Below, piece by piece: positions 10,053 through 56,179 of a DNA stretch of 64,000 nucleotides. Made by a program: the position numbers and the translations under genes. The stretch's first letter is position 1, and each line of letters opens with the position of its first letter. The stretch comes from a virus: the IMG/VR virus record IMGVR_UViG_3300047091_000002, positions 55,488 through 119,487 of that record; one strand, 5' to 3'. The notes below the pieces were generated by a model that saw only the letters and a list, made by a program, of their open reading frames with translations, was not told the DNA's origin and did no database searches.

Positions 10053-10081
10053 TTGACAAATTGAATTATTTGAGTTATAAT
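10053..10081 (+). promoter_or_regulatory. Consensus sigma70-type promoter facing against the tail operon
   Basis: TTGACA (10053-10058) - 17 nt - TATAAT (10076-10081). Confidence 0.75.
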
Positions 10082-10087
10082 ATTTGC

Positions 10088-10175
10088 AGATTGGGATTAA
10101 ACCAATATTTGGCAGGATTCTTGATGAATTGTACCGGAGAGAGTTACGGGAATTTCCCTCTCCGGTTAATTTTTT
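10088..10175 (+). ncRNA. Candidate small RNA between promoter and terminator
   Basis: About 88 nt between perfect promoter and plus-strand terminator; hairpin ATTGG-GATTAAA-CCAAT; no ORF. Confidence 0.5.
10133..10175 (+). terminator. Intrinsic terminator
   Basis: ACCGGAGAG (10133-10141) pairs with CTCTCCGGT (10158-10166), followed by a T-tract on plus strand only. Confidence 0.65.
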
Positions 10176-10188
10176 ATGAAGTTATGTA

Positions 10189-20373: not shown

Positions 20374-20673
20374 TTAATCCCCAAATACATATTGTGCTAT
20401 AGCTCCAGAAGTCTCCTCAATTATTTGAAGAGTTACTCCCTCAAGGTCAATTATAACTGGTTGATCCCCCACCTTAAGAACAAATCCTACAGTAGCAGAT
20501 GGAACATCATTTGATCCGAGTGTAAATCTGATATTTTGGGCTAATGCTTGTATAAGAATTTTTCCACGAGTTCCAGCAATAGAAGAAAGATCTGTAACTG
20601 TTGAAAGAGTGGTATCTGAAACATGATCTCCCTGCGGATAGAATTTGTTGACTACTGCGATTTCATCTGGCAT
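20374..20673 (-). CDS. Small beta-rich virion protein (putative)
   Basis: 99 aa; IQALAQNIRFTLG...PSATVGFVLKVGD pattern seen in phage structural small proteins. Confidence 0.5.
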   Translation of the reverse strand: MPDEIAVVNKFYPQGDHVSDTTLSTVTDLSSIAGTRGKILIQALAQNIRFTLGSNDVPSATVGFVLKVGDQPVIIDLEGVTLQIIEETSGAIAQYVFGD

Positions 20674-22699
20674 TATTAGCTCCGGCTAAATTAGTTTGTT
20701 GATTTTCAGCTAACTTTCTCGCAGCTTCTTCCTTATCTAATCTTTCTTGAATTACTGCGTAATCTTTTATTGGTCTTCCCCAACCATCTAGGTTTCTCTT
20801 AGCAGTAGTTCCGAATCTTCCATTTGCATATATGGCTGTTCCTACAGGAATTCTAAATTTATCTGATATTTCTCTTAATTGAGAACTGGTGATAACGTTG
20901 CGAATATTATCTTGGGTCACGCGAATAGAAGAAGCGGATGTAGGTCTATAGGACTGCCCCATACGAGAGGCTTCTTTTGCTATCCAAGCACCAATGGCTG
21001 TATCAGGAGTTACATCAATATCGTCGTATGTAAATGTCTGCATATCCCAAATAAAAGTACAAAGCGGACATCCGCAGGTTGTTGAATCTTTAGGATTAAG
21101 TTCCACTATATGATGCCTTGGATGAGGAACCGGAACTCTCCAGCCACCTTGAGAAAATTCAATATCCAACCCAGGAAGTCCAATTTCCCTATCCATTTTA
21201 TTTATTTTTCCAGTATGGAAGGGTTGTATCACATTATGACAGGTTAATCCCATCGTTGGGAACCATTTAATAATCTCTTCTTGGAGAGTATTACTTTCAA
21301 CAAATATTAAACGAGGTCTGTATTCAAGATAGGCGGCTTCTAATTGATAACAGAAGGTAGGTTGATCCCAGTACGGTCCTTGGCTTGGGGCCATTTTTAT
21401 ATCAAGAACCTGCTTTACACCATCAGGTCGAATACCGAGAATAAAAATTACCGTACCGCGTCTTTTTGCGCTTGACATATCGCAACCAATATAAACGGGC
21501 CATGTTCTATCAAAATATGAAGGATGCGAAGAATCGCTTGCTAACTTCCAATCTTCTGAGTAAACGTATACTCTACCGGGAAGAAAATTAGGAAAGAATA
21601 AATCTCCAGATGCTTGAGGTCTTTGCCTGAATCCTTTTTGATATGCCTTCTGCCCTAATTTAGATTCGATTTTCTTTAAATAATCGGGTGATCGAAGCGC
21701 CCATCCTGGACCAGTAAATTCTATAGGATTTGCAATAGGACGATCCAAATAACTTTGAAACTTTGTAGTATCTATTCGGTTATCGAATATTTCATCTCTC
21801 CAATTCTTAAAATCCTCTGGTACAGGATGTTGATCATCTTGCATTGCCCCATAAATCGAATAATCTAGATGTGTGCGATCTTCCGAAACTGCCTGCACCA
21901 TCGTACAATAGGCATCAGGGCTTGCTATAAACCTTGTTGCATAAATATCTTGTGCGTGGTATCTCGTACCAATAGCGCAAAGAATAGAATCCATACAAAG
22001 AATTTCACCATCAATTGCTACTACTTGTTCTCCGCTTGCACGAGAAAGCCATTGAGTCGAAAACAGGCGATCTAACTCATCTCTTTTAGCTACACTGGAA
22101 CTATTAGATTCTGATGCAATATCATCAGGAATAATCACATCAGCACGAGCGCCATTTCCAGCATTAGCGGTATAACCATATGCGCTAAGGGACGAATCAA
22201 CAGAACTTACAAATCCGTCTATTCCATCAAGTGAATAGCGTTTAATATTTAAAACATGTTGATTCCAACTTCGGTCTTCATCAGCCTGAACATGAGGAAA
22301 TACTTCTTTATACTCTGGGGAAAACTTGATATAACGACCGACTTCCTCTAGCCGTTCACTTGCTGCCTTATCCGTAGCAGATACTAACATTATTCTAAGA
22401 TTAGGGTTCCTTCCAAGTAGCCATAAAGGAAGGGCAAGGGCTATCGTTACAGTTTTACAAAATGTCATCGGAGCAATAATAAGACATTCTTTATTATTTT
22501 TCCAGCAATATCGAAGGTGTTTCCACCAAGCCATTTGATGCGGAGCAACTGTAACTTTACGACCCTGCTTATCCCTAATAACATATTCAAGAAAATGCAT
22601 AAAATCCAATCTGGCTAGTTGAATTTTAGCTAATTTCTTTTTGTATTCTTGAGGAATTACAGGCTGTTTTTGTTTACGGGGTCTAATCTTGGATGGCAT
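20663..22699 (-). CDS. terL: Terminase large subunit
   Basis: Walker A-like IIAPMTFCKT, Walker B VIIPDD, coupling motif IGTRYHAQD, nuclease IGCD. Confidence 0.92.
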   Translation of the reverse strand: MPSKIRPRKQKQPVIPQEYKKKLAKIQLARLDFMHFLEYVIRDKQGRKVTVAPHQMAWWKHLRYCWKNNKECLIIAPMTFCKTVTIALALPLWLLGRNPNLRIMLVSATDKAASERLEEVGRYIKFSPEYKEVFPHVQADEDRSWNQHVLNIKRYSLDGIDGFVSSVDSSLSAYGYTANAGNGARADVIIPDDIASESNSSSVAKRDELDRLFSTQWLSRASGEQVVAIDGEILCMDSILCAIGTRYHAQDIYATRFIASPDAYCTMVQAVSEDRTHLDYSIYGAMQDDQHPVPEDFKNWRDEIFDNRIDTTKFQSYLDRPIANPIEFTGPGWALRSPDYLKKIESKLGQKAYQKGFRQRPQASGDLFFPNFLPGRVYVYSEDWKLASDSSHPSYFDRTWPVYIGCDMSSAKRRGTVIFILGIRPDGVKQVLDIKMAPSQGPYWDQPTFCYQLEAAYLEYRPRLIFVESNTLQEEIIKWFPTMGLTCHNVIQPFHTGKINKMDREIGLPGLDIEFSQGGWRVPVPHPRHHIVELNPKDSTTCGCPLCTFIWDMQTFTYDDIDVTPDTAIGAWIAKEASRMGQSYRPTSASSIRVTQDNIRNVITSSQLREISDKFRIPVGTAIYANGRFGTTAKRNLDGWGRPIKDYAVIQERLDKEEAARKLAENQQTNLAGANNAR

Positions 22700-30310: not shown

Positions 30311-30338
30311 TTGACATTAGTTTGAATCTGTAGATAAT
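30311..30338 (+). promoter_or_regulatory. sigma70-type promoter
   Basis: TTGACA - 16 nt - GATAAT. Confidence 0.6.
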
Positions 30339-30341
30339 AGG

Positions 30342-30610
30342 GGCTGTCGCAGGAAAGCGGCAAAATCGAGCAAGGCGCGGGGAGCGCAAGGATTTGAATA
30401 AACCAAGTGGCTTGCGCGATTAACTCGAAAGGGTGAAAGGCAAGTTTAGAATAAAGGTTTGTAACTTGCGAAGTTGTTTACTGGCTAGACTTTGATTCGC
30501 TTAGATGTTCGATTCTAACCGATGAAATCCGCAAGTAAAAGATAGATAAAATGCAACCAGTATCTACAGTATTTAATAAAAGAAAAGGCTAGGCGCAAGT
30601 CTAGCCTTTT
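30342..30610 (+). ncRNA. Candidate ~265-nt structured RNA
   Basis: Between promoter and terminator, no ORF; GNRA-type hairpins, GCGCAAG/CTTGCGC and TTAGAAT/ATTCTAA helices. Confidence 0.55.
30583..30610 (+). terminator. Intrinsic terminator
   Basis: AAAAGGCTAGGC-GCAA-GTCTAGCCTTTT. Confidence 0.75.
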
Positions 30611-30619
30611 GGGGTTGTT

Positions 30620-30811
30620 ATGGTCAAAAGTGAGATCAAAAGAGGGATGCGAGTATATGATTGCCGGTCAATGCGATATGGTATCGTATTGGCGGTTTTT
30701 TCTTCTAGTGTGAAACTGAGACTTGAGGATAGACAAGGCGAGGTTAGAAAGTATCCTCTTGAGACTGTTTCCTCAGTTTCGACTATAAGTAAAGAGAGGG
30801 TAATTCTATGA
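30620..30811 (+). CDS. Small SH3/KOW-like beta-barrel protein (putative)
   Basis: IKRGMRVYD...YGIVLAV...VKLRLED pattern. Confidence 0.45.
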   Translation: MVKSEIKRGMRVYDCRSMRYGIVLAVFSSSVKLRLEDRQGEVRKYPLETVSSVSTISKERVIL

Positions 30812-49481: not shown

Positions 49482-49853
49482 TTGAAAGGAGTTAAGATGA
49501 GCGAAGGTAAACGTCTTGTTTTCGGTACGTTTCGTCCTTGTATGATTCCGTGCGGCCATTCTCGTGCCGATTGCTCAAATTGTAGAGGGAGAGTCGAGGA
49601 GTATTCAGAGATAAGGCTTTGCATCTGTTCGCACCACACGGAATTCTCTCTTGAAGATCAACTGGCTGTCATTAGGTACAGGCTGGACGAGTTTGATGAC
49701 GTACAGCGCGAGCAGTACCAAGATGTACAGAACGACAGAAGATGTCAGCTAGAGCGGGAAGCCGCTGTGGCGAAAGAAATATTCAAGCTTGGTGGAGGCC
49801 CGAAACACGCACGGCGACCTTCAAGCGGGCAATTGTACGGAGACAAGGACTAA
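49482..49853 (+). CDS. Hypothetical Cys-rich protein, GC-rich relative to neighbours
   Basis: PCGHSRADCSNC...CICSHH; start probably ATG 49498. Confidence 0.55.
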   Translation: MKGVKMSEGKRLVFGTFRPCMIPCGHSRADCSNCRGRVEEYSEIRLCICSHHTEFSLEDQLAVIRYRLDEFDDVQREQYQDVQNDRRCQLEREAAVAKEIFKLGGGPKHARRPSSGQLYGDKD

Positions 49854-49904
49854 GGAGCCGCCGCTCCGGCCTAAAGGCTTCGGAGCCTCCTTTCGGAGGA
49901 ACAG

Positions 49905-50123
49905 ATGAAAAATAAAATTAAAACTGTAATCACTGATAAAAAATTTATTAAATGGTTAAGAGAACATGGGTGTCCTGATTTTTATAGTAGCTTCATACTT
50001 ATAAAAGGAATGGGAGAAAGAATGGAGTTGGAAATCGTTAATGATAAAATAGTAGAATTAACTTGGTACGGAAGACCGAAAAATAAATCATTGAAAATCT
50101 TACACATCGATGTAAAAGATTAA
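49905..50123 (+). CDS. Hypothetical protein
   Basis: GGAGG RBS; intact paralog of 47598-47792. Confidence 0.6.
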   Translation: MKNKIKTVITDKKFIKWLREHGCPDFYSSFILIKGMGERMELEIVNDKIVELTWYGRPKNKSLKILHIDVKD

Positions 50124-50587: not shown

Positions 50588-50682
50588 TGAAGAAAAATAA
50601 AGTAACAGTGTTGGCTGAGTTAAAATTGGGAAAGAAAAGGTTCCTTTTATACAGGATATTATTCTTAGATTAGAGAATTTTA

Positions 50683-50868
50683 ATGTTAACAAAAAGACAA
50701 AAAGAAAATTACCTTAAAGAACCTAGTAAATGTCCTAAATGCATATCAGATGATATTGACGTAATTGTTGCATTTGATGGAAATAATCAGGGTATACAAT
50801 GCCTAACGTGTGATTTTTATTGGATTGACATCTATGAACTGGTTGACATAATAGAAAACGAGGATTAA
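50683..50868 (+). CDS. Small zinc-ribbon protein
   Basis: CPKC...CLTC. Confidence 0.55.
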   Translation: MLTKRQKENYLKEPSKCPKCISDDIDVIVAFDGNNQGIQCLTCDFYWIDIYELVDIIENED

Positions 50869-52452: not shown

Positions 52453-52847
52453 ATTAGTTGAGAGCGGTAAGGAAATATTATGAAATGTCGTAATTGCAAA
52501 GAAGATATACAACCTTGTAAATGCTTTCGTAATAAATGTGTTGATTGCGGAAAGCCAGTTGGTAATATAACATTTACTGCCTGCGATTCCTGTTGGGATA
52601 AGAAATATAAATCTGAAGATACGTGAATAGATTAGAAAATTTTAATGTTGAGGAATTATGCACAAACACTATTGTAATAAATGCTTCTCTATAATAGAAT
52701 GCAAGACTAGAAAGTGCGTAGAACGATATTATCGGCTATGTAAGCAATGTTCAGAGGGATTACGAGGACAAAGAAGGGTTTCAGTAAATGGAAAATGGAG
52801 ATATATAAAAGATTAGAAAAATTTAATCTAGAAATAAAGAATAGGAC

Positions 52848-52876
52848 TTGACAAATTGATTTAAATGTGTTATAGT
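52848..52876 (+). promoter_or_regulatory. sigma70-type promoter
   Basis: TTGACA - 17 nt - TATAGT with TG extension. Confidence 0.7.
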
Positions 52877-52881
52877 AATAA

Positions 52882-53345
52882 ATGCTCGATGCAAGAGCAA
52901 ATGGTCTGATGTTGTAGTTGATAATTAAATAGACCTTAAATCGCACTAATCGTGCATCCTGGTGACAGGACGTGGAATGGTAGGGCTTGTCGTATATGAA
53001 GCTACAGTATAGGCTCAACATAACTGAGGTAAACATCGGCACGATGGATAGTATGACCAATAGCTCTGCATCCATCAGTAGCGCAACCTCAAAGAGCAAC
53101 TACGCTGTAGCCCCGCTGCTCGTTGTCCACGAAAATCCGCCCCTTACGTGCTTCCATTTTTACTAGGAAGTCGGTACGGCTATACGAGATAACCGGCACA
53201 TCAAAAAGCGACGGGGAACTCAAGTTGAAACTTGACTACGACCTTTAGATGTATACCTAATAGTTGTTCGGTAGTGATACACATCGTATTTTACCGAATA
53301 GCTAGGTAGGTATACGTTTGTCCATAGCTTAGAAGAATCTAAGTT
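52882..53345 (+). ncRNA. Candidate ~460-nt structured RNA
   Basis: Begins at predicted TSS; helices CGTGGA/TCCACG, GCTACAG/CTGTAGC, GATGGA/TCCATC, TCCTG-GTGA-CAGGA, GTATACCTA/TAGGTATAC, 13-bp TAGTTGTTCGGTA/TACCGAATAGCTA. Confidence 0.65.
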
Positions 53346-53450
53346 GTGGTATTTTAAATAATACTTCTTTAAAAACATTTTATATACTGTATATACAGTA
53401 TTAAAGATTATTAGATACAATAATTACAGATTTATATACTATAAAATAGT

Positions 53451-54197
53451 ATTCAGGAATTAACTATCAAATCTTGTATTAAATGTAAAGAGAACTACCC
53501 TAGAACTACTAAGTATTTCTACAGTAAAACCAGTTCATCAGATAGATTACGTAACGAGTGCAAGTCCTGTTTTAAAACAATCACAAATAAAATTCGTAGA
53601 CGATTAGTTAATCGTAGAAGGGCTTGCGGTATATGTTATTCCTGTAAAGAAAGGGTTCTGCCCGGAAAAACTTTTTGTAGTGACTGTAATGCCAAAATAA
53701 ACAAGCGAAACAAAGCCCGTCGCAAGAAACGAAAGGAAAGACGTGAATGCGTTCAGTGCGGTTCCCCTGATATTAAAGGGAGTTCCTTTTGTAATAAGCA
53801 TTTTCAAGTTCGAGTGGTCGCGCAGAGGAATTACTTATTAAAGCGTAGGCTACAAGGATTATGTAGCGATTGTCCATTACCACTTATTGCCTCCTCGTAC
53901 TGCCTTGAGTGTTGGGTACGACATAATGCAACTAAAGCGACCGGAACCGTTAAAATGTATTTACCCGCTCGCCGTTTGTTAGATAGGCAAAACTGGAGAT
54001 GCGCGTATACTGGAATTAAATTAGTGCCGGGTGTCAATGCAAGTATTGACCACATTCTACCCCTTTCAAGGGGCGGAGCTAAATCCGATATTAACAATCT
54101 ACAATGGGTAGATTTATCCGTCAATCGGGCTAAGAACAATCTTACTCATGAGGAATTTCTTTCTATCTGCCGAATAATAACCGAGCGGTGGAATTAA
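53451..54197 (+). CDS. Zinc-finger HNH endonuclease (frame open 121 codons upstream of the annotated GTG)
   Basis: Upstream KSCIKCKENYP...NECKSC plus further CxxC pairs in frame with WRCAYTG...SIDHILPLSRGG...NLQWV...VNRAK. Confidence 0.8.
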   Translation: MQELTIKSCIKCKENYPRTTKYFYSKTSSSDRLRNECKSCFKTITNKIRRRLVNRRRACGICYSCKERVLPGKTFCSDCNAKINKRNKARRKKRKERRECVQCGSPDIKGSSFCNKHFQVRVVAQRNYLLKRRLQGLCSDCPLPLIASSYCLECWVRHNATKATGTVKMYLPARRLLDRQNWRCAYTGIKLVPGVNASIDHILPLSRGGAKSDINNLQWVDLSVNRAKNNLTHEEFLSICRIITERWN

Positions 54198-54372: not shown

Positions 54373-54906
54373 ATGAATACTACTAGATTTGTTAAGATTT
54401 CAGCAAGAAGAATGAAGAAACGCCCTACTAAGTATGAGTATATCTTTAGGGAAAGACTTATTAAGGCTGAAATTGCACATAGATTTCAAGTTGAGATAGG
54501 AAATTACATTGCGGATTTTCTATTTCCCGATAAGATGTTAATCGTAGAAATTGATGGGAGGTGGCACGAAGACCCCAAACAAGTAATATACGACTCCAAA
54601 AGAACCGAAGTCTTTGAAAAGATTGGATATACTGTTATTCGGGTAAAGAATCAGAATGTTAAAGATTTTTCATTAGAGACTATAATAGATATACCGAATC
54701 GAACCTCAAAAGAGTATAAGAAGGCAATCGCCAGAGCTAAGAACTTTCGTAATGTTGCCTTCTGTACTGTATGCCAAAAAGATACTCCTGTCACTAACTC
54801 AAATAAGTTTATGCCTCACGGTAGTCGTGGTTCCTGCCCTCTTAGTGGAAAATTCGTCTCAAAAGACCTAAAACTTATTTCTAGACACCCGGAAAGAACT
54901 CTTTAA
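54373..54906 (+). CDS. DUF559 / Vsr-like endonuclease
   Basis: QVEIGNYIADFLFPDKMLIVEIDGRWH...DSKRT...GYTVIRV. Confidence 0.85.
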   Translation: MNTTRFVKISARRMKKRPTKYEYIFRERLIKAEIAHRFQVEIGNYIADFLFPDKMLIVEIDGRWHEDPKQVIYDSKRTEVFEKIGYTVIRVKNQNVKDFSLETIIDIPNRTSKEYKKAIARAKNFRNVAFCTVCQKDTPVTNSNKFMPHGSRGSCPLSGKFVSKDLKLISRHPERTL

Positions 54907-55585: not shown

Positions 55586-56179
55586 ATGATATTTGATGTT
55601 AAGACTGTTTCCGCCAAAATTGGCTATAAAGCCAAACCTCCTGTAAATACATACTCTATCCCTATGCGCCTTATGGAATTAGGGTATAAAAACTATAAAG
55701 ATTATCTTAGATCGGATCATTGGCAATCTTTCCGAAAAAGATTCTTTTCTGAATCTGCAATTTGTAAGCGCCTTACGATAAAGTTCGGCAGACCTGTATG
55801 CCAGTATTGCCATTCCGGTAGAAATTTAAATATCCATCATCGAACTTATAAACGACTAGGGGGTGAACGGCTTAGTGATGTCGTATTAGTGTGCCAAGAT
55901 TGCCATAAGAGAATTCATGATTTCAACAAGACCTCTCGAAAAGGTTTATGGTCTGCCACTTCTAGAGTCGGTCGTAAACAAAAGAAATTAAAGCTCAAGA
56001 AGGATACGCCTAGTATCAGGCGTTGGATTTGTCCAAGTTGTAAGAAGTTTATGTATTTAGATAGATTTGATAATTTTGTTCTTCACGGAAATCCTAAAAA
56101 TAGATGCCCTATGAGCGGAAAAACTAATCGTAATAACTGCACCAATAAGGAGCCATATGAAATCTTTAGCGCAAATTAA
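55586..56179 (+). CDS. HNH endonuclease
   Basis: YLRSDHWQ...CQYC...LNIHHRTY...LVCQDCHKRIH. Confidence 0.88.
   Translation: MIFDVKTVSAKIGYKAKPPVNTYSIPMRLMELGYKNYKDYLRSDHWQSFRKRFFSESAICKRLTIKFGRPVCQYCHSGRNLNIHHRTYKRLGGERLSDVVLVCQDCHKRIHDFNKTSRKGLWSATSRVGRKQKKLKLKKDTPSIRRWICPSCKKFMYLDRFDNFVLHGNPKNRCPMSGKTNRNNCTNKEPYEIFSAN

Follow-up and report, generated by a model that had tools for sequence, protein, structure and literature searches.

The locus lies on the plus strand of a phage genome. It comprises a promoter, a G+C-rich stretch free of open reading frames (ORFs), two strong hairpins, a spacer carrying a perfect palindrome and a gene for an HNH endonuclease, which is followed by a gene for a DUF559 nuclease (54373-54906) and by a second HNH gene (55586-56179). 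Runs of selfish nuclease genes such as HNH/DUF559/HNH are typical. All positions refer to the window, the stretch of 64,000 nucleotides that was analysed, which corresponds to bases 55488-119487 of a 119,487-bp IMG/VR virus record (IMGVR_UViG_3300047091_000002). The record has a terminal overlap of 127 nt and a genome-wide G+C content of 36.3%. Coordinates and main properties of the features are collected in Table 1.

Table 1. Features of the locus, with positions in the window
Feature	Position	Strand	Properties
Sigma-70-type promoter	52848-52876	+	TTGACA, 17-nt spacer, TG extension, TATAGT; predicted by consensus
Predicted non-coding transcript, ~470 nt	52884-53355	+	Bounded by promoter and terminator; ORF-free; no Rfam match
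5'-terminal hairpin	52884-52898	+	GCUC, 7-nt loop, GAGC; pair probability 0.98
Extended irregular hairpin, 111 nt	53001-53111	+	Helix probabilities 0.93-0.99; best-defined part of the G+C-rich core
C-rich, G-poor stretch	53060-53160	+	29 C versus 14 G in 78 nt
Near-perfect RNA hairpin, 33 bp	53246-53320	+	7 G.U pairs, one 1x2 internal loop, one bulge, 5-nt loop
Predicted intrinsic terminator	53322-53355	+	12-bp stem with 2 G.U pairs, AGAA loop, UAUUUU
Perfect palindrome, 18 bp	53384-53401		Half-sites ATACTGTAT and ATACAGTAT; in a spacer of 23% G+C; single copy in the genome
Gene for a free-standing multi-zinc-ribbon HNH endonuclease	53466-54197	+	243 codons from ATC 53466

The promoter matches the consensus at 11 of 12 positions, carries the TG extension and is the top-scoring site of the region. 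On this basis it can be classed as a sigma-70-type promoter with an extended -10 element (TTGACA, 17 nt, TGnTATAAT), and transcription is predicted to start at 52882-52884 on the plus strand. A consensus promoter firing straight into ORF-free sequence, as claimed by the first-pass annotation, was thus recovered, its activity being a prediction. The site falls within a family that recurs in the genome, of the form TTGACAAA...TGnTAnAAT or TTGACAAAT..., other members of which include sites at 10053, 28219 (minus strand) and 62349 of the window. Genome-wide, 14 promoter sites scored at least 11/12, versus 6.5 in shuffled sequences, and the pattern of the extended promoter was matched exactly twice in the window, versus 0.1 matches expected. 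For three family promoters located outside the window (G000:C1:904, 8268 and 43261), an ATG was found just 7-10 nt past the -10 hexamer, which implies, as far as the sequence goes, leaderless or near-leaderless early messages. Since these other members reach an ATG within so short a distance, a leader of 470 nt at the present locus would appear to be a deliberate feature.

Between 52877 and 53465, no plus-strand ORF of more than 59 codons was found, in agreement with the ORF-free stretch originally described behind the promoter. The 59-codon ORF had no homologue among 1.84 billion representative proteins. On six-frame reading, no protein-like frame was seen in the RNA unit, and tblastn in all frames found nothing similar in the phage's own genome or in 82 fetched loci, 80 of which carry HNH relatives. 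A coding gene or pseudogene was rejected on the basis of these searches. With the promoter ahead of it and the long hairpin and terminator at its end, the ORF-free stretch probably gives rise to a non-coding RNA. At the nucleotide level, no DNA resembling the unit was found by blastn in GenBank phages or PLSDB plasmids. Searches with exact words (seven 18- to 24-mers taken from six parts of the RNA) gave no match in collections of viral, metagenome and genome contigs, as searched without records very near this genome. Among the other genomes indexed in the same survey, no look-alike stretch was found either.

The composition of the unit differs from that of the genome. G+C content is 43-50% at about 52940-53245 versus 36.3% genome-wide, about +3 SD for 300-nt windows, and amounts to 48% for the RNA core. 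This region includes the C-rich, G-poor stretch. Here, the excess of C over G is +15 (mean -3.9, SD 5.5), the largest on the plus strand between 29000 and 64000 of the window. This stretch may represent either the 3' strand of helices in the core or a rut-like entry site for Rho.

At its 3' end, the predicted transcript carries the two strong hairpins. After adjustment for G+C, no other 90-nt window on the plus strand of the whole genome is as stable as the first of these, which has z-scores of -7.2 to -8.6. Folded as the plus strand, it reaches -38 kcal/mol (z = -8.6), versus -22 kcal/mol (z = -3.6) for the minus strand. The long terminal stem that had been described as 9 bp plus 13 bp was thereby found to be better than described. 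With 33 bp, the predicted stem exceeds the roughly 20 bp of nearly continuous double-stranded RNA that characterizes RNase III substrates, and the hairpin is a probable RNase III-type substrate or 3' stabiliser. Directly downstream, the second hairpin has the features of an intrinsic (Rho-independent) terminator and is predicted to act as such, with a short U-tract and a folding energy of -14.4 kcal/mol on the plus strand (z = -6.2) versus -7.1 kcal/mol on the minus strand.

Over the 45 bp of the two 3' stems together, 9 G.U pairs and no A.C mismatch were counted (sign test, about 0.002), and both hairpins lose 40-50% of their stability when the complementary strand is folded. These figures point to strand-specific selection at the RNA level on the plus strand rather than on a DNA palindrome. 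The same asymmetry bears on the reading of the locus as a DNA-level element, which could serve in replication (as an origin), packaging or recombination or be recognised by the nuclease. Such an element would explain the clustering of long inverted repeats with a perfect 18-bp palindrome, but is highly unlikely: on the other strand the 9 G.U pairs become A.C mismatches, no iterons or direct repeats were found, and origins are usually A+T-rich whereas this region is G+C-rich.

The 18-bp palindrome itself is present exactly where it had been reported. Perfect palindromes with arms of at least 9 bp occur three times genome-wide, this one included, and at least one was obtained in 8 of 20 shuffled genomes. 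A recurrent operator was rejected as an explanation because the sequence occurs once; its sequence is compatible with a possible operator. We take the palindrome, ATACTGTATATACAGTAT, to read like an E. coli SOS box minus 4 bp, that is CTGT-N4-ACAG and not N8. A second, imperfect palindrome (ATACTAT-AAA-ATAGTAT, 53436-53452) was spotted by eye 35 nt downstream of the first. Located in the spacer before the HNH gene, both could act as operators.

Folding of the whole unit gave z = -5.5 relative to dinucleotide shuffles. The 352-nt core (52884-53235), on the other hand, folds no better than shuffled sequence, with z = -1.5 on the plus strand and -1.8 on the minus strand. Because the core is ordinary and the 3' hairpins are strong, most of the z-score of the unit must come from these two hairpins. 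Perfect inverted repeats in the core were close in number to those in shuffles, with 21 6-mers (12.9 +/- 4.5 in shuffles) and 5 7-mers (3.1 +/- 2.2). The long-range helices CGTGGA/TCCACG and GCTACAG/CTGTAGC, to which attention had been drawn at first, are therefore not above chance.

Locally, the 5'-terminal hairpin begins exactly where the transcript start was predicted. It forms part of a region of four small hairpins (52884-52972, z = -3.1, with boundaries chosen post hoc). The extended irregular hairpin of 111 nt scored z = -4.1 when cut exactly at its closing pair. Following the same choice of boundaries, 2 of 40 shuffled cores reached z = -4.0 or lower, about the 5% level, and the fold of this domain is thus marginal. 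The description of the transcript as a large structured RNA accordingly holds only for its ends, with the two 3' hairpins, and fails for the core (z = -1.5).

These results also bear on the idea that the transcript acts in trans on its own, as a stable early RNA from a new family that might, for instance, sequester a host factor or mimic one. It would then lie near the nuclease genes by coincidence, and the terminator would do no more than delimit its gene. Length and a G+C content of 43-50% in a genome of 36% would suit such an RNA, and a 5'-terminal hairpin combined with two 3' hairpins is typical of stable RNAs. The z-score of the 111-nt domain points the same way, as does the occurrence in this phage of other ORF-free promoter-to-terminator units, including one at 10053-10180 that has no downstream gene. 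We consider it nevertheless rather unlikely: the core does not rise above shuffles once boundaries are treated fairly, the genome holds no paralogue, no homologue was found in the collections searched, and no known motif was recognised.

Known RNA families were searched with cmscan and Rfam 15, using the gathering score for the 64-kb window and E ≤ 10 for regions of 2 kb and 0.5 kb. At either threshold no known family was detected, which is the outcome of the cmscan check that the first-pass annotation had proposed. The only matches were chance ones, to a miRNA precursor (by the long hairpin) and to a snoRNA. Several candidates were rejected individually. tRNA, tmRNA or a decayed tRNA array were excluded by ARAGORN, negative at default and 80% thresholds, and by the lack of an Rfam match at E ≤ 10. 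GOLLD, ROOL, OLE and raiA gave no match to the family models. For a CsrA sponge, GGA motifs were near chance frequency in an approximate hand count, and a hammerhead was discarded on reading the sequence, as the core is CUGAUGU and lacks the essential A.

Introns were likewise excluded. The group I model (RF00028) was not matched at E ≤ 10, consistent with the earlier statement that no intron core is visible. A group I intron with homing endonuclease would require a P3-P8 core with a G-binding P7 and an interrupted host gene, neither of which was found: the ORF upstream is closed by a stop codon of its own at 52816, and no split frame resumes past 54197. A group II intron, retron or diversity-generating retroelement (DGR) was excluded by the absence of a reverse transcriptase (PF00078) from the whole 119-kb genome, in a search that gave matches in control genomes.

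The frame of the HNH gene is open from 53445, and its first ATG, GTG or TTG lies at 53814, 121 codons in. Alignment with 15 relatives indicated a full-length protein. In those relatives that share its first zinc ribbon, the N-terminus lies 3-5 residues ahead of the first Cys, a position equivalent to the ATC at 53466, and an AGGA motif is located 7 nt upstream of this codon. Both observations point to ATC 53466 as the start of translation. Promoter-like sites of the gene's own matched the consensus at 9 of 12 positions at best.

The protein matched the profile phrog_1035 (3.4e-18). In Pfam, only HNH_4 (just below cut-off), HNH, HNH_5 and DZR were matched. Across 16 sequences, the D-H...N...N residues are invariant (D200, H201, N216 and N225). 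An AF2 model (pLDDT 88) consists of three zinc-ribbon/helix modules and the HNH domain, for which the nearest solved structures are HNH domains of type II-C Cas9 and the Gme nicking endonuclease (E about 1e-3). The protein thus combines the beta-beta-alpha-metal core and N-terminal zinc ribbons of free-standing phage HNH nucleases (phrog_1035 / HNH_4) and, judged by its sequence, is an ordinary member of the multi-zinc-ribbon kind. Both the Pfam domains and the model agree with the initial remark that RuvC motifs are lacking.

HNH relatives were collected from IMG/VR, giving 80 loci with 28-50% identity; 82 loci were fetched in all. Sequence resembling the RNA was absent from the 82 loci (nhmmer, blastn). 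Similarly, 50 whole viral records containing HNH relatives gave only chance matches of 14-20 nt. The gap between the start of the relative and the previous ORF had a median of 25 nt in the 70 loci measured, and longer gaps were not G+C-rich. Around 20 relatives, no known Rfam RNA other than tRNA was detected. The co-occurrence of RNA and HNH gene across phages, suggested at first as a way to probe a link between the two, was accordingly negative among these relatives, all of which are distant (at most 50% identity). In 3 of the 20 loci scanned, tRNA genes were found within about 3 kb or less of the HNH relative (L018:2226-2446, L004:5555-5626 and L060:2192-2274), the distance being about 0.8 kb or less in L018 and L060. 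In large phages, homing-type nucleases are usually found in such a neighbourhood.

A partnership of RNA and HNH protein, in which the RNA would serve the nuclease as guide, scaffold or regulator along the lines of omegaRNA and IscB, or in which the pair represents a degenerate intron with its homing endonuclease, is suggested by several features. RNA and gene are adjacent, share one orientation and are both G+C-rich islands; the domain is of the HNH_4 type and structurally closest to Cas9 HNH domains; and the gene has no canonical start codon. The evidence set out above makes this reading very improbable. The HEARO/omegaRNA model (RF02033) was not matched at E ≤ 10, nor was an intron model. 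IscB partners have a split RuvC, a bridge helix and HNH in about 400-500 aa, whereas the present protein has zinc ribbons and HNH in 243 aa and shows neither RuvC, bridge helix nor PLMP. The RNA accompanied the HNH gene in 0 of 82 loci and 0 of 50 whole records, the median upstream gap being 25 nt in the 70 loci measured, and neither a split host gene nor a reverse transcriptase was found. Given how distant these relatives are, a partnership private to this phage keeps a small probability. A terminator and an A+T-rich spacer lie between RNA and gene. In addition, neither a paralogue nor a guide-like match of more than 13 nt to the RNA, including its 5' and 3' segments, was present elsewhere in the phage genome. 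Even less credence is given to the idea that the RNA founds a new class of phage non-coding RNAs and cooperates with the adjacent Cas9/IscB-type HNH protein, for example as guide or scaffold for a RuvC-less nickase or by controlling how the nuclease cluster homes. Of the two options offered by the first-pass annotation, an independent RNA suits the observed promoter and terminator together with the G.U-rich hairpins at the 3' end; the new RNA-HNH partnership found no support, lacking a model match, RuvC and co-occurrence.

The G+C-rich core could also be non-functional foreign DNA, a decayed gene or a remnant of a mobile element that arrived together with the HNH gene and now lies behind a resident promoter and ahead of a hairpin and terminator. 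The core (48%) and the HNH gene (42-45%) both exceed the 36% G+C of the genome, a foreign-looking island with 53% G+C lies nearby at 49498-49853, and the core has neither a significant fold nor a strand preference. Moreover, homing endonucleases co-convert flanking DNA. Yet the core contains no protein-like frame and, by tblastn, resembles neither the sequence flanking 80 HNH relatives nor any other part of its own genome, and its 59-codon ORF is without homologue. Core and HNH gene are parted by a spacer of 110 nt and 23% G+C which includes the terminator, and 350 nt of junk right behind a top promoter would be rare in a compact phage genome. An origin of this kind is considered improbable.

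The layout of strong promoter, ORF-free RNA, terminator hairpin and genes recurs in this phage at 30311-30612 and 62349-62552. Because of this recurrence, and because the HNH gene lacks both a canonical start and a good promoter, a leader or attenuator that limits read-through is favoured. To the reading that the locus is an independent non-coding transcription unit on the plus strand, serving as promoter-proximal leader/attenuator of the nuclease cluster, we assign a probability of about 45%. Host RNA polymerase of the sigma-70 type would initiate at about 52883 at the near-consensus extended -10 promoter. The resulting RNA would consist, in this order, of the 5'-terminal hairpin, the G+C-rich core of about 350 nt and the 33-bp hairpin with its G.U pairs. 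Transcription would mostly halt at the intrinsic terminator, which would hold the downstream homing-nuclease cluster (HNH with ATC start, DUF559 and second HNH) nearly silent. Silencing may be reinforced if Rho loads onto the C-rich untranslated stretch, and a cut by RNase III in the long hairpin could separate the leader from the read-through message. In addition, the terminated RNA of about 470 nt may be stable and build up early in infection. Its length of 470 nt and G+C content of 48% exceed the needs of a simple attenuator; for these two properties a trans-acting RNA or foreign DNA fits better.

Further units and repeats were observed elsewhere in the window. At 30311-30612 (plus strand), about 270 nt of G+C-rich RNA without ORFs, beginning with AGGGGCUGUCGCAGG, lie behind the promoter TTGACA-16-GATAAT. 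A strong terminator (30583-30612) precedes the ORFs at 30620 and 30808. No Rfam match at E ≤ 10 was obtained for this unit, and its 5' half folds with z = -3.0. At 10053-10180 (plus strand), a perfect 12/12 promoter (TTGACA-17-TATAAT) is followed by about 95 ORF-free nt ending in a CCGGAGAGAG/CUCUCCGG stem and then a U-run, with a fold z of -2.3. This unit lies on the plus strand amid structural genes of the minus strand, has no gene downstream on its own strand and is a candidate small RNA. A 26-nt repeat forming an AGATTA...TAATCT hairpin was found at 50664-50689, 52626-52651 and 52807-52832, each time after a small zinc-ribbon ORF. It probably serves the small-ORF cassettes in common, as a terminator or as a signal for processing. 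Finally, an ORF of 118 codons at 49498-49905 constitutes the G+C-richest 300-nt stretch of the genome (53%) and is followed by G+C-rich hairpins; from its composition, it looks like a recently acquired foreign gene.

By its proteins, the phage appears to belong to an orphan, essentially unsampled lineage. The large terminase (TerL, 20663-22699, minus strand) had a single relative among 5.8 billion protein clusters, with 42% identity. This relative is encoded on a 31.7-kb JGI contig, which is not in IMG/VR. Close kin of TerL, or of the 209-aa protein adjoining the RNA unit, was not found in IMG/VR either. If the RNA is transcribed as predicted, several non-coding units running from promoter to terminator, this one included, would exist in a phage without close relatives. 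They would point to an RNA-heavy early programme, in which leaders and attenuators gate selfish nuclease genes, in an unstudied viral lineage. The locus also calls for caution: what first appeared as a structured RNA next to an HNH gene came down to two strong 3' hairpins, a random-like core and a nuclease family without RNA association. In practical terms, the unit provides a well-defined target for transcript mapping as soon as a host or a metatranscriptome is at hand.

Compared with known systems, group I introns with HNH genes (SPO1 I-HmuI; RF00028) share with the locus a G+C-richer RNA adjoining an HNH ORF in an A+T-rich phage. Unlike in those introns, there is no core or interrupted gene here, a promoter lies exactly at the 5' end, and the 175 nt past the HNH gene are A+T-rich and unstructured. 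HEARO/omegaRNA-IscB loci (RF02033) likewise have an ORF-free RNA upstream of a co-oriented HNH_4-type gene, but the present RNA does not track the protein family, and a terminator separates it from the gene. GOLLD (RF01998), ROOL (RF03087) and the phi29 pRNA (RF00044) are comparable in being encoded by phages, non-coding, between a hundred and several hundred nt long and transcribed from their own promoters. They differ in that their models were not matched and that the core described here is thermodynamically ordinary, without sign of an ornate, covarying fold.

Early terminators that are overcome by antitermination are known from lambda (nut/tR1, tL1) and HK022 (put RNA). Shared with lambda nut and HK022 put is the order of promoter, structured or C-rich untranslated RNA, terminator and delayed genes, a layout present three times in this phage. 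In contrast to these systems, neither a boxA/boxB or put-like element nor a gene for an antiterminator was recognised, and the RNA, with 470 nt, is far longer. In T7, about 400 nt of non-coding leader lie behind the early promoters A1-A3, and an RNase III-cleaved hairpin (R0.3) separates this leader from the first early gene. The T7 leader and the present unit have in common a strong promoter for host polymerase, several hundred untranslated nt and a long irregular hairpin before the first ORF. The two are not related in sequence; the hairpin forms a near-perfect 33-bp duplex here versus a bubble-containing site in T7, and it abuts an intrinsic terminator. Cleavage in the present case is a prediction. 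In its presumed working, the unit would be most like the T7 early leader or the promoter-proximal early terminators of the lambda type, and it is filed here as a phage non-coding early transcript.
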